Shown piece by piece: positions 1 to 64,000 of a stretch of 64,000 bases of DNA. A program made the translations under genes and the position numbers. The stretch is from an uncultured virus (IMG/VR IMGVR_UViG_3300031659_000001). Lineage: Duplodnaviria; Heunggongvirae; Uroviricota; Caudoviricetes. The notes beneath the pieces were generated by a model, which saw only the letters and a list, made by a program, of their open reading frames with translations, had not been told where the DNA came from and ran no database searches. The stretch lies in the IMG/VR virus record IMGVR_UViG_3300031659_000001; one strand, written 5' to 3'. Positions within the stretch are counted from its first letter, which is position 1. Each line of letters begins with the position of its first letter.

Positions 1-189
1 GGTTGGCAAGCCAAGTATCAGTTCGTTGATAGCATGACGGCCTGTATGACCGGCTAAGTAGTGCAACAGATCTTGACCCTCTTTGTCGCCGCATGACACA
101 CGCCATGCTTTGGTAAGAGAATCAACCATGTCCCACAGTTCGTCACCAACGACCGTTGATGTTTCCTCATAGGTAGGTGCATGAGTCAT
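1..189 (-). CDS. Hypothetical protein, partial (runs off window edge)
   Basis: ATG at 189 overlaps stop of 186..428 (ATGA), upstream GGAGG; frame MTHAPTYEETSTVVGDELWDMV... is open to position 1. Confidence 0.6.
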   Translation of the reverse strand, partial: MTHAPTYEETSTVVGDELWDMVDSLTKAWRVSCGDKEGQDLLHYLAGHTGRHAINELILGLPT

Positions 190-428
190 TGGCATTCCTC
201 CAATTTGGTTTGCCAGTGACGACCACATTTCGACGAGTGATGTGTCACATTATCCACATTGTAGCCACTAAATCCTGCAAGACAGATCTGAAGTGACCCG
301 ATGGTGTGCTGGGCGATTCCTTCGCCACAGAAGCGACATATGTCACCCTCAACAGGTTCCTTGAACTTCTGCACATCGATCGGTAGTAGGGCGTATTTCA
401 TGCGGTAATAATCATCGGGTTGTTTCAT
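186..428 (-). CDS. Small CxxC/His-containing hypothetical protein
   Basis: 80 aa, CRFC and H/C motif; GGAGG RBS; ATGA-coupled to both neighbours. Confidence 0.65.
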   Translation of the reverse strand: MKQPDDYYRMKYALLPIDVQKFKEPVEGDICRFCGEGIAQHTIGSLQICLAGFSGYNVDNVTHHSSKCGRHWQTKLEECQ

Positions 429-610
429 TGTGATTCCTCCTTCAACAATAGTTCCAGTTCTTCAACAATACATTCAACAGGTTCGGTATCGCAACCGCCC
501 TTTTCAATGGTGTCAATGTATTTGGCAATACCAGCCTTGAGGCGTGTGTTTTCCTCAAGCAATTGCTCCAACCACACACTGCCCACCATTGTTCGTGCTG
601 AATCACTCAT
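425..610 (-). CDS. Small coiled-coil hypothetical protein
   Basis: 61 aa; ATGA overlaps on both sides. Confidence 0.65.
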   Translation of the reverse strand: MSDSARTMVGSVWLEQLLEENTRLKAGIAKYIDTIEKGGCDTEPVECIVEELELLLKEESQ

Positions 611-684
611 TGAGAATCACACTCCCCACATCCACAATACCATGTGACAATGGATCTCGGGTTTCGGTTGAGACAGTAAATCAT
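607..684 (-). CDS. 25-aa Cys-rich microprotein (MIYCLNRNPRSIVTWYCGCGECDSQ)
   Basis: Read manually; GGAGG RBS; ATGA overlaps with both neighbours. Confidence 0.5.
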   Translation of the reverse strand: MIYCLNRNPRSIVTWYCGCGECDSQ

Positions 685-821
685 TGGGATTGCCTCCTTG
701 TGTTTTTTGCGGTGAACATATATTGCTGGCATATCTCATGCAAACAAACCTTAGCGAAGGTCGCTGTGTGCATACGCACTGGCATGTCGCATATCGGGCA
801 GGTTGGGTCATCGGTAATCAT
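681..821 (-). CDS. 46-aa Zn-finger-like microprotein (MITDDPTCPICDMPVRMH...C)
   Basis: Read manually; GGAGGAATCAGC-ATG; ATGA overlaps on both sides; CxxC. Confidence 0.6.
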   Translation of the reverse strand: MITDDPTCPICDMPVRMHTATFAKVCLHEICQQYMFTAKNTRRQSQ

Positions 822-61185: not shown

Positions 61186-61188
61186 CGG

Positions 61189-62454
61189 GTGCCAAAAATA
61201 CAATTGATTCGCAAGGACGGCGGTATAATTGAACTCGACGCCACCAGTATCGGTATGTCAGTGACCCGTGGTGTTTCAACATGGCCTATACCCATCATCG
61301 CTACCCGTGCTGGGTTGGATCTCAACGCAAACACACTCTCAATCAACATAGAGGGGGTTATCAAAGACGACGATTCCAGCACTGGTGACAACCCCGCCGC
61401 CTGTATTCTTGACCTTTCAAGACCTACTGGTGCTTTTGCCTCTTGGTTCGATCAGCAAAAGGCTCTCGGCCATAACTCCATGACATTGGTGATAAACGCA
61501 CTGCACGGGAAGGAAATTATATTCAGCACGGCTGGGCAAGTAGGGGCTGGGGCTGGTGAAAAAATCACACTTCGGTTCGACAAAGCGAGTTCTTTCTCAA
61601 GCAGTGTTGCCACAGATTCAGTCGTTCGTGTCAATTTGTCGGGGACTGTGACCCAAACAAGCCACATCGCTACCGCAATAAAAGCGGCCTTGGACGCTGG
61701 ACAATGCAAAGTTGGTGCCACTACAACAAACATCAGTGCCCTCCTTTCTACAACGCTTTCAGTCGGCACGAAGTCGGTTATCAGCAAAAGTTCACAGGGA
61801 TTAAGTAGTGGGAGTTCTATTGGGAATGAGAAGGTCACTATAACAAATATCGTCACTGGAAAGAACGGCAACCGCACTATCACCAAGCAAGGCTCTCCGC
61901 AGTATTCCGGTGTGAACGACTGGTTGGCTACATTCTTCATTTCATCATTCACAGGTGGTGTAGATGGTTCTCGCAAGAGTAAAGGCGACAAGATACAGGA
62001 TTTGTTGAATATGACAATCAATGCTTCGGCTGGTGGTGCTATGATTTCACCTCAAGCCTTGACAGGCGACCTTGTTGAAATGCCGGATTCGTTGTCATCC
62101 TTTGACGCTTCAAAGTTGCTGGGTATCAGTGAATCCGCTTCTGTCCGAAAATACATCGTCGGTTTGCGAATCCCCTATGAATCCATGATCACAGCAGGAG
62201 GACAGGGTGAAGTCTTACGCCAATTCATCATTCCATCGGGGCCGGGAACAGACTACCCATCCGAAGACAACACAGAACCATTTGACCCAACAAACGACGA
62301 AGGCGGTGTCATCACACGCCCCAATCCATTTTTCCGCCAAAAGGTAGCAATACCGGGCGTAGTGCAAACATTCACACCCGCCTACGCCGCAGGTGATTCG
62401 GTTTGGACATATACACTTGGATTCCAAGCCGTCGAACAATTGATTGGGATTTGA
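61189..62454 (+). CDS. Putative distal tail protein
   Basis: Follows tape measure; S/T/G-rich insertion. Confidence 0.5.
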   Translation: MPKIQLIRKDGGIIELDATSIGMSVTRGVSTWPIPIIATRAGLDLNANTLSINIEGVIKDDDSSTGDNPAACILDLSRPTGAFASWFDQQKALGHNSMTLVINALHGKEIIFSTAGQVGAGAGEKITLRFDKASSFSSSVATDSVVRVNLSGTVTQTSHIATAIKAALDAGQCKVGATTTNISALLSTTLSVGTKSVISKSSQGLSSGSSIGNEKVTITNIVTGKNGNRTITKQGSPQYSGVNDWLATFFISSFTGGVDGSRKSKGDKIQDLLNMTINASAGGAMISPQALTGDLVEMPDSLSSFDASKLLGISESASVRKYIVGLRIPYESMITAGGQGEVLRQFIIPSGPGTDYPSEDNTEPFDPTNDEGGVITRPNPFFRQKVAIPGVVQTFTPAYAAGDSVWTYTLGFQAVEQLIGI

Positions 62455-62460
62455 TGTCAA

Positions 62461-64000
62461 ATGCCGATTAAGAAAATACATTCACAGGCGATCCGCTTGA
62501 ACGGATTCACGGATGGAATGGTTGTTCCTACTGGCGCATTCCGTGAAAGTGGTGTGGATTTGTATGCCGCATCACATACGGAAAAAACCGGCTCAACGAA
62601 CAAGGTTCCTTCTTACAATAGTGACGAACCAAAAATAGGTTTGCGTCATATCCCAAACGAAGGCAACGGTTTGAACAATATAATTGGCCCATTTACTATC
62701 GAAGCCTTTGTCATACCGGACAAAGGGGGGGTAGTGGTGCATAAGGAGAATTGCTACACTCTTTCTATCGGAGAACCACATAAACAAGGCAAAGCGTCAT
62801 TCGTAGTCCACACCCGTAGCATTTCGGGTGAAAATAACGGTGAACAGGTAGAAACCCCATACGACTTCCCATCAACCGAAAACATATCACTTTGGGGCGG
62901 GCAAAGTGCTTATTTCGACTCATCATCCGACCTCTTGCCGCACGATTTGGATTTACCCAACCAACCACTCATCTATCTCAATGCTCAATTCACTGGTTCC
63001 GACATTCGTCTTTACATTAACGGGGATTTAGTAGCAAAACAAGACTTTGGTGGTGAAGAACGCATATTACAGTCCAGTTCATCCGATCTGTTCATTGGTG
63101 GGCGTGGTGGAGAGTTCCGTGGTGTCATAGAAAGTGTTCGCATTAGTCGAGGAACCATAGCCCCTAAATTACAACAATTCACCAAAACGCCGGTCACTAT
63201 GGGTCTTTGGGACTTTGAAGACGAAGACGATATTCCCGACATTTACTTCTTTAATAACAAATCACCTTCGCATTCATATGCTGGGGCTGATGGGGTTGGA
63301 CAAAATGACGATGAAATGCCTTATCCTATGGTATGTGTTGGTTATGATTTCAATAATGTGACTGTGAGTGGAACGATTACAACACCCATTACACTTGCGG
63401 CTGGCTACAATTACGGGCGTTTCAAAATACGAAACTTTCCGGGTAGTGCCCCAACAGCCTTGAAAATGATTGCTTCACACATGTTATCGGTTCCTATTGA
63501 TGAACTACCGCTTCAATCGTGGTGGAACAACGGTGCTGGTTATCTCGATGTGGGGGCAACAGTCACCAAAGCACGCTATCATGCTGATGGATTGCCTGTA
63601 AGCAATTTGAATGCGGTGATCAACGCCAGTGGAACCGACCCGATAACCGGCGGCTCATTCAGTTCTTTTGACTATAATTCGACTAATTTAGACCCAAGCG
63701 GTGGTATAAGCCTCAATCCGATGGCTAATCCCATTGAACGAATCCGCATCATAGCCCTCGATTTCACCACAGATGAGGTAATAGTTCAAAGTAGTTTCCT
63801 ACAAGGAACGACGGCTGACGCTAAAACGACCGGCTTTTTGTTTAGTCACCCCGACAATACACCCGTGTGGTTCACTCTCGGAAATGCTGATTTAATGATA
63901 GACCCCGGAAACGATGCCCGACCAAAAGGCCAAATGACACGGGCACGATTCACACAGGGACAGCGTTTTGAAGACAGATCTGGATTCGGGAATGAGGCAT
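62461..64000 (+). CDS. Tail protein with LamG/concanavalin-like domain, partial
   Basis: Frame from ATG 62461 appears open to window end; FTIEAFV...LYING...LFIGG...FRGVIESVRIS...GLWDFE. Confidence 0.75.
   Translation, partial: MPIKKIHSQAIRLNGFTDGMVVPTGAFRESGVDLYAASHTEKTGSTNKVPSYNSDEPKIGLRHIPNEGNGLNNIIGPFTIEAFVIPDKGGVVVHKENCYTLSIGEPHKQGKASFVVHTRSISGENNGEQVETPYDFPSTENISLWGGQSAYFDSSSDLLPHDLDLPNQPLIYLNAQFTGSDIRLYINGDLVAKQDFGGEERILQSSSSDLFIGGRGGEFRGVIESVRISRGTIAPKLQQFTKTPVTMGLWDFEDEDDIPDIYFFNNKSPSHSYAGADGVGQNDDEMPYPMVCVGYDFNNVTVSGTITTPITLAAGYNYGRFKIRNFPGSAPTALKMIASHMLSVPIDELPLQSWWNNGAGYLDVGATVTKARYHADGLPVSNLNAVINASGTDPITGGSFSSFDYNSTNLDPSGGISLNPMANPIERIRIIALDFTTDEVIVQSSFLQGTTADAKTTGFLFSHPDNTPVWFTLGNADLMIDPGNDARPKGQMTRARFTQGQRFEDRSGFGNEA

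Follow-up and report, generated by a model that had tools for sequence, protein, structure and literature searches.

Why would a short sequence persist in a virus genome only where it runs into a second one? This question is raised by a 64,000-nucleotide stretch of DNA from an uncultured tailed virus (IMG/VR record IMGVR_UViG_3300031659_000001; the whole stretch is called the window below). Every copy of the pentanucleotide YCWGR (Y, C or T; W, A or T; R, A or G) in the window overlaps a GATC tetranucleotide. A reading by eye of the letters alone had suggested that a host nuclease recognizing YCWGR, or subsets of it, is blocked by methylation of overlapping GATC sites. From its predicted genes, the window is a piece of a magrovirus genome (about 64 kb out of roughly 100 kb). 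Magroviruses are tailed viruses, and their assigned hosts are archaea of Marine Group II (Poseidoniales).

We propose that nucleases of restriction type, most likely host restriction enzymes, select against dozens of short words in the virus genome. The virus DNA would be modified at GATC, most likely to G(m6A)TC (m6A, N6-methyladenine), by a Dam-family (D12-class) methylase that the virus encodes, by a GATC methylase of the host, or by the two together. A purged word that shares two or three bases with GATC would then hold a methylated adenine inside its recognition site, and cutting would be blocked. Shielded copies would be selectively neutral and persist at chance frequency, and each unshielded copy would be removed. 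We consider this combination of restriction purge and shielding by the GATC adenine likely to be the right explanation.

YCWGR survives only where it overlaps GATC

We counted YCWGR exactly and found 27 sites in the window, all of which overlap one of its 155 GATC sites. Two bases are shared with GATC in 26 of the 27 (GATCWGR or YCWGATC), and one base is shared in the last (GATCCAGA, 31948). Markov models of orders 0, 1, 2, and 3 predicted 481, 516, 377, and 199 YCWGR sites, respectively. As a second null, we made 200 shuffles of synonymous codons inside genes, which kept the proteins and the codon use of each gene. Non-overlapping YCWGR occurred 308 times on average in the shuffles (standard deviation 13, minimum 278) and is absent from the window. 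Sites overlapping GATC numbered 26.6 on average (standard deviation 4.7), against 27 observed. GATC itself occurs 155 times, compared with 229 in the shuffles. Non-overlapping YCWGR is thus completely purged, and the overlapping class shows no depletion at all. A table of NCWGN contexts placed the gaps precisely: the missing contexts are Y...R and GCWGC only, and YCSGR (S, C or G) is found at normal levels.

The avoidance noticed by eye therefore holds far beyond chance, with no non-overlapping site where the Markov models expect 199-516 copies of YCWGR. Each coordinate given in the sequence-only reading was correct, and 11 sites that it did not list (11063, 30130, 31948, 32556, 33912, 40446, 42943, 46660, 57508, 58858, and 63979) obey the same rule. 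The NCWGN table confirmed its statement that a pyrimidine otherwise comes after CCAG, TCAG, CCTG, and TCTG. The exact count gave these surviving YCWGR sites, for which no strand is assigned:

287..291, TCTGA in GATCTGA, two-base overlap
1003..1007, CCAGA in CCAGATC
2131..2135, TCAGA in TCAGATC
2828..2832, TCTGG in GATCTGG
3541..3545, TCAGA in TCAGATC
4714..4718, TCAGA in TCAGATC
5114..5118, TCTGG in GATCTGG
11063..11067, TCAGA in GATCAGA
12867..12876, CCTGATCTGG, with CCTGA at 12867 and TCTGG at 12872 around one common GATC
17161..17165, TCTGG in GATCTGG
18410..18414, TCAGA in TCAGATC
26807..26811, TCAGG in GATCAGG
28377..28381, TCTGG in GATCTGG
30130..30134, TCTGA in GATCTGA
30848..30852, TCAGG in GATCAGG
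31948..31952, CCAGA in GATCCAGA, the only YCWGR that shares just one base (C) with GATC
32556..32560, TCAGA in GATCAGA
33912..33916, TCAGA in TCAGATC
36406..36410, TCTGG in GATCTGG, whose GATC is also that of the ATCGAT at 36401
40446..40450, TCTGA in GATCTGA
42943..42947, CCTGA in CCTGATC
46660..46664, TCTGA in TCTGATC
52421..52425, TCTGG in GATCTGG
57508..57512, CCAGA in CCAGATC
58858..58862, TCTGA in GATCTGA
63979..63983, TCTGG in GATCTGG

Four other words of the window follow the rule. All remaining copies of CTAG, TCATGA, TCCGGA, and ATCGAT overlap GATC (exact count, no strand assigned):

375..382, ATCGATCG, one of three ATCGAT together with the only CGATCG of the window (377-382)
29730..29735, ATCGAT in GATCGAT
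36401..36406, ATCGAT in ATCGATC
44586..44591, TCCGGA, sole copy, in GATCCGGA
50041..50044, CTAG, sole copy, in GATCTAG
55988..55993, TCATGA, sole copy, in GATCATGA

The exception recurs in independent DNA and is specific to GATC

We looked for the same rule in DNA outside the window. One IMG/VR record, G001, is 99.99% identical to window positions 1-41760 and reaches 22,582 bases past window position 1. In this extension, GATC overlaps all copies of YCWGR (8/8), CTAG (3/3), ATCGAT (5/5), TCATGA (3/3), and TCCGGA (1/1). The window and the extension together make up the 86.6 kb of the window's virus used below. The closest long relative, L089, gave the same result in DNA with no alignable counterpart in the window (YCWGR, 7/7; CTAG, 1/1).

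Using the major capsid protein of the window as a query, we retrieved 80 related IMG/VR loci at 77-99% identity. Across 42 sequences of the clade (the window, the extension, and 40 loci), 107 of 111 distinct 25-base YCWGR contexts overlap GATC; this count excludes sites lying 10-15 bases or less from the end of a locus. Of the four contexts that do not overlap GATC, one is in L005 and three are in the last 210 bases of L120 (7318-7476), a cluster that may mark a recombinant or misassembled contig end. An apparent exception in L001 was discarded as a site cut off by the contig end.

When all 4-mers were scanned as candidate protectors, GATC stood out: its 155 sites accounted for 83 survivors belonging to 15 words. 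CGCA and ACAG, which also scored high, could be explained as unions of ordinary sites. The exception tracks the full GATC rather than any single flanking base. Surviving sites also turn over. Compared with a relative of 79% nucleotide identity (L010), one of four aligned window sites is common to both and five are found in the relative only, all of them overlapping GATC. Turnover that always stays inside the GATC overlap argues that the filter is ongoing rather than a frozen accident.

YCWGR is one of dozens of purged words

The purge of the window extends to many words besides YCWGR. ACGT, AGCT, CGCG, and GTAC have no copies, compared with about 214-246 expected for each. CTAG and GGWCC have one copy each, and CCWGG, GCWGC, CTCAG, and CAGAG have none. 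Among hexamer palindromes, 45 of 64 are absent, 25 of them without any absent tetramer inside; those kept at normal levels include every GATC-containing palindrome except CGATCG. All 73 GCGC sites are of the form TGCGCY/RGCGCA, which equals joint avoidance of RGCGCY, TGCGCA, and CGCG. The avoided words resemble restriction targets in being short and either palindromic or typical asymmetric sites. Enumerating degenerate motifs gave 80 "maximal" patterns, many of them chimeric unions or artefacts of masking GATC, which we used for orientation only. The overall pattern shows what appears to be exceptionally heavy restriction pressure, with a set of purged words that differs by lineage.

The methylomes of the host lineage share some of these words. 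In the available part of PMC8919816 (Data S2), GTAC, CGCG, and AGCT are methylated in Poseidoniia genomes (m4C, N4-methylcytosine), as are GTWAC or GTNAC and GAAAC. PMC9516812 lists CGCG, TCGCGA, and GGTAG as methylated in MGIIA genomes. Thus, three of the absent viral tetramers match methylation in the host lineage.

Some further words behave in other ways. CAATTG is enriched in the window (42 copies, 16 expected). CGTCTC/GAGACG has three copies left; CGTCTC-like methylases are listed for two Poseidoniia genomes in the available part of PMC8919816 (Data S3). AGTTG/CAACT is present in one orientation only, at 12:0 in the window and 14:0 over the 86.6 kb. Among relatives, the ratio is 30:0 in L013, 28:0 in L086 (which has genes on both strands), and 0:20 in L070; non-avoiding relatives have near-equal counts, such as 25:28 and 20:27. 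Keeping sites in a single orientation is a classic escape from enzymes, Type III among them, whose action depends on a pair of head-to-head sites (phage T7 and EcoP15I). Further word pairs in the window show strand bias for which coding bias could account.

Several nucleases likely read the parts of YCWGR

YCWGR is the union of four reverse-complement word pairs: CCWGG, TCWGA, CCAGA/TCTGG, and CCTGA/TCAGG. We scored avoidance of each in 58 rows, comprising the window and the 57 of the 80 loci that reach 6 kb (the other 23 are shorter):

CCWGG only avoided, 22 rows
CCWGG and CCAGA/TCTGG avoided, 10 rows
CCWGG, TCWGA, and CCAGA avoided, 9 rows
CCWGG and TCWGA avoided, 1 row
All four avoided, 14 rows
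None avoided, 2 rows

Neither the window nor 76 of the 80 related loci contain CCWGG. To our knowledge, no enzyme has been characterized for TCWGA, CCTGA, or YCWGR; CCAGA has an entry in REBASE. Because relatives avoid the four words in different combinations, several nucleases are likely to be at work rather than one. This is the simpler account, and a YCWGR enzyme gained in addition to an inherited set is a less likely possibility.

The alternative is a single host nuclease with a degenerate palindromic YCWGR site, reading YC in each half-site as a homodimer and blocked by m6A at an overlapping GATC. We consider this possible but unlikely. It would explain why none of the 58 rows avoids CCTGA/TCAGG without also avoiding TCWGA, CCAGA, and CCWGG, and why avoidance of all four words appears in two separate groups, which the capsid tree does not place as sisters (support for the relevant fork is only 91/88). 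Relaxed half-site reading is also plausible, since the available passages of PMC8112702 resolve the apparent YCWGR specificity of a Neisseria methylase into CCWGG with off-target CCWGA. Against a single nuclease, the components are avoided separately in 42 of the 58 rows, and the state of the window needs just one added word beyond the inherited set. CCAGA and CCTGA also behave differently, which a symmetric reader of YC would not predict. Of the suggested host nuclease for YCWGR "or subsets", then, the subsets were borne out by the relatives, which avoid the four pairs independently, and a single YCWGR nuclease was not required.

The number of shared bases points to the adenine of GATC

We reasoned from the number of bases that a purged word shares with GATC. 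For the listed purged words in the 86.6 kb, copies without GATC overlap numbered 0 against about 2,055 expected. Copies sharing two bases (40 observed, 33 expected) or three bases (8 observed, 7.3 expected) were not depleted, and copies sharing one base were mostly missing (7 observed, 32.9 expected). By word, the one-base class comprised CTAG (4 observed, 7.3 expected), CTGAAG (2, 0.9), and CCAGA (1, 1.7), and held no CGCG (6.2 expected), CCWGG (3.2), CTCAG (3.5), or CAGAG (3.5). The proposition that one-base overlaps never protect was rejected, as CTAG and CTGAAG copies survive there in part. The same comparison over 665 distinct GATC contexts of the clade gave:

TCWGA, two bases shared, 37 observed, 42 expected
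TCWGG, two bases shared, 50 observed, 41 expected
TCATGA, two bases shared, 6 observed, 5.3 expected
TCCGGA, two bases shared, 8 observed, 5.1 expected
ATCGAT, three bases shared, 24 observed, 21 expected
CTAG, one base shared, 6 observed, 21 expected
CGCG, one base shared, 1 observed, 20 expected
CCWGG, one base shared, 0 observed, 10 expected
CCWGA, one base shared, 1 observed, 10.4 expected
CGATCG, contains GATC, 1 observed, 40.5 expected
AGATCT, contains GATC, 44 observed, 43 expected
GGATCC, contains GATC, 33 observed, 40 expected
TGATCA, contains GATC, 52 observed, 43 expected

Two- and three-base overlaps are neutral, one-base overlaps are mostly purged, and CGATCG is purged, which suggests that shielding needs the A:T pair of GATC inside the site, with the C:G pair alone seldom enough. 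We infer from this dependence that the mark is N6-methyladenine at GATC and not a modified cytosine.

A cytosine mark (m4C or 5-methylcytosine, m5C) or another base modification at GATC is improbable. In its favor, a small share of m4C was called at GATC in one Poseidoniia genome of the available part of the host data (10.5%, compared with 42% m6A), and CTAG copies that share only the C of GATC survive in part. Copies of CGCG, CCWGG, CCWGA, CTCAG, CTCTG, and CTGAG beside GATC, which a modified cytosine should shield as well, number 2 against about 56 expected. CGATCG is purged (1 observed, 40.5 expected), and the methylase found belongs to the N6-adenine D12 class with a DPPY motif.

Viral and host sources of the GATC mark

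Reading frames of the D12 methylase class (PF02086) are present in three of four and in two of five related records searched, with scores of 41.3, 37.5, 47.4, and 26 bits (cut-off, 22). The closest long relative has this gene some 31 kb downstream of the one for the capsid protein, which corresponds to a position near 82 kb in window coordinates, outside the window. The window has no homologue, and none was found in the G001 record, which ends about 700 bases before the syntenic slot. Contig L116 is 99.99% identical to the window's virus over 12,951 bases and, 827 bases further, ends in the last 54 codons of the D12 gene, at the position expected from synteny. A second contig, L108 (1,581 bases, with a D12 gene 81% identical to that of L089), was considered as the source of the gene of the window's virus and rejected: it is only 74-78% identical to L116 over 164 and 184 bases and belongs to another relative.

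The D12 protein of L089 aligns to DpnM and carries WEGGK, EPMTGSGS, and LDPPY, matching the motifs WxGGK, EPxxGxG, and DPPY. All six of its PDB sequence matches at E <= 0.1 are DpnM or Escherichia coli Dam, both GATC enzymes, and we infer that it is specific for GATC. The protein has about 460 residues, including an N-terminal extension of roughly 100 residues and a long insert. The host may contribute to the mark as well, since m6A was found at GATC in five of seven Poseidoniia genomes (available part of PMC8919816, Data S2). Shielding by GATC methylation, as the sequence-only reading had proposed, is thus supported by the specificity for GATC, the other words, the independent DNA, the turnover of sites, the Dam-family methylase, and m6A at GATC in Poseidoniia.

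A slot flanked by the genes for the PD-(D/E)XK nuclease and the primase is a methylase cassette site (L089 16199-17587; L122 13765-14997; L118 13750-14757; G001). L089 and L122 have an N6_N4 methylase there, L118 has a C5-cytosine methylase, and in the window's virus the slot is empty. Some relatives are free of GATC (0 in 21 kb for L035-L037; 0 against 54 expected in L132), and YCWGR is not avoided in them. Among GATC-free relatives, the G006 and G007 records are about 50% complete, and L132 stops before the slot of the D12 gene.

Origin of the purge

Several points weigh against restriction by host enzymes with shielding by GATC methylation. The analysis identified no nuclease. A string search for TCWGA and YCWGR in the supplements to two papers on marine methylomes (PMC8919816 and PMC9516812) found neither, and the Poseidoniia rows listed in their available parts hold no CCWGG, CCAGA, or CCTGA motif; the kinetic method of one paper (single-molecule real-time sequencing) detects m5C poorly. 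Host modification ratios at GATC are only 15-42% in the part of PMC8919816 available, seemingly too low for full shielding by a host enzyme alone. The D12 protein scores 49 bits against the Dam subfamily model TIGR00571, for which the cut-off is 115, and only 54 C-terminal methylase codons are tied to the window's virus. In three close relatives (L122, L118, and L114), the 8-10 kb downstream of PolB, where the D12 gene of L110 is located, contain no such gene, yet the YCWGR sites of these relatives all overlap GATC (13, 10, and 6 sites, respectively; 0 non-overlapping). Because they keep the pattern, a viral methylase is not clearly required. Finally, the partial depletion of one-base CTAG overlaps (4 against 7.3 in the 86.6 kb; 6 against 21 in the clade) needs an extra enzyme-specific assumption.

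The purge could instead be self-inflicted, with nucleases of the virus itself, acting for example in degradation of host DNA, and its own methylase sparing the copies that overlap GATC. Relatives offer candidates: a related virus family is reported to encode "restriction enzyme-like nucleases" (passages of PMC12999244), and the replication module of relatives includes ERCC4 and PD-(D/E)XK nucleases. Avoidance patterns also shift as fast as gene cassettes. We regard this as very improbable. Dozens of words, with five tetramers and 25 hexamer palindromes that hold no absent tetramer, exceed what a 100-kb genome is likely to encode readers for, and Pfam found no restriction endonuclease family in the 56 window proteins. 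Three of the purged tetramers match methylated motifs of the host lineage, as far as the methylome sources extend. Least probable of all is that no methylation is involved and that the overlapping copies are kept by selection on extended GATC sequences or by mutational or compositional bias: overlapping YCWGR is slightly commoner per GATC than in the shuffles (27 per 155 against 26.6 per 229), but three YCWGR positions can mutate without touching GATC, so that a retained GATC does not force a retained site, for each of five unrelated words the overlapping copies are about as frequent as chance predicts, the set of surviving sites turns over from one relative to another, and composition cannot explain why a one-base overlap is unprotective.

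Comparison with known restriction and methylation systems

Several bench enzymes are blocked by overlapping Dam methylation, including ClaI (ATCGAT), XbaI (TCTAGA), BspHI (TCATGA), BspEI (TCCGGA), and Hpy188I (TCNGA). PvuI (CGATCG) is insensitive to Dam. The survivors in the window correspond closely: ATCGAT, TCATGA, TCCGGA, CTAG in TCTAGA-like contexts, and TCWGA, a subset of TCNGA. CGATCG is likewise unshielded in the window's clade, and here, too, shielding seems to require that the A:T pair carrying the proposed mark lies inside the site. The difference is that we see an evolutionary footprint in a wild virus genome, for which the enzymes would be archaeal. The likeness to Hpy188I also stops short, in that TCSGA is not avoided in the window, which argues that the nuclease is not a reader of TCNGA. 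The window resembles EcoRII/Dcm-type systems in missing CCWGG, but its avoided set goes further, to TCWGA, CCAGA, and CCTGA. CCWGG cannot share two bases with GATC, so no shielded CCWGG copies exist.

Phages T4 and P1 carry orphan Dam methylases. The magrovirus gene is like these and like the phiCh1-type gene described in the available passages of PMC8651126 in its D12 class, its DPPY motif, its place in the replication module, the retention of GATC, and the lack of a recognized adjacent nuclease. It differs in that the protein is very divergent, falling below the Dam subfamily cut-off, and in that some close relatives lack the gene at the syntenic position. The same passages report that haloarchaeal tailed viruses keep GATC only when they encode a Dam methylase and otherwise lose it, and that archaeal tailed viruses evade restriction through self-methylation or motif purging.

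As in other phages and archaeal viruses that avoid restriction sites, selective loss in the window is strong, lineage-specific, and directed at short, mostly palindromic words. The window differs in extent, with four tetramers gone, a fifth at one copy, and 45 of 64 hexamer palindromes absent. Even viruses with about 90% identity between their capsid proteins avoid different sets of words, and survivors follow an exact GATC rule. The kind of system is known, both as site avoidance with anti-restriction methylation and as blockage by overlapping Dam sites; the scale, the exact survivor rule, and the base-level inference are new in degree. The literature passages available on restriction and methylation in magroviruses and Marine Group II contained no description of the purge or of the GATC rule.

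Marine Group II archaea and their viruses are uncultured, and their defence and counter-defence biology is known from gene lists only. Here, sequence alone yields evidence for modification at the GATC adenine and predicted nuclease specificities to compare with host methylomes. We suggest, with a little less than even confidence, that the purged words are a readable record of the restriction enzymes met by each magrovirus lineage in uncultured Marine Group II, and that the overlap rule of the survivors reads out G(m6A)TC in virion DNA. If so, the record would include specificities for which no characterized enzyme is known to us: TCWGA, CCTGA/TCAGG or YCWGR, and a Type III-like reader of AGTTG. 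Avoidance "barcodes" could then pair uncultured viruses with hosts through methylomes or restriction-modification genes and guide discovery of new archaeal enzymes. Reading survivor overlaps would be a general method for any virus that both purges sites and methylates its DNA.

Virus identity and gene content

The assignment to magroviruses is based on the Pfam gene set, the replication genes of the G001 extension and L089, and the available passages of PMC5628999, PMC10768690, and PMC12999244. We found a tailed-virus morphogenesis module, a chaperonin, and an archaeal-type replication module (PolB, PD-(D/E)XK nuclease, and primase). The predicted genes of the window include:

8733..9623, + strand, HMGL-like (HMG-CoA lyase family) auxiliary gene (Pfam)
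18823..20400, - strand, group II chaperonin gene, thermosome-type (PF00118, E 9e-166)
38731..40167, + strand, large terminase (PF17289)
41500..43299, + strand, portal protein (PF04860)
49327..50643, + strand, prohead protease (PF04586)
50658..51824, + strand, major capsid protein (Pfam), the query that retrieved the 80 related loci

The available passages of PMC10768690 describe HMGL-like auxiliary genes in related viruses too. They also report chaperonin genes in the related family Aoguangviridae, which is without any cultured member, but name them GroEL and GroES rather than thermosome. Searching genome contigs with the viral thermosome returned a single match, in one Woesearchaeota genome. 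Scans of the window for tRNAs and Rfam families gave zero matches. Virus-collection scans with the window proteins at 4849-7704 and 23332-25386 matched only the window's own record and served to find the 22.6-kb extension.

The G001 extension and L089 encode PolB, a PD-(D/E)XK nuclease, a primase, an ERCC4 nuclease, and a PAPS-reductase-like gene. The PAPS-reductase-family gene (L089 18469-19425, with a homologue in the G001 extension) adjoins the nuclease and PolB genes. Proteins of this family act in some DNA modification pathways, and a second DNA modification through this gene is possible.

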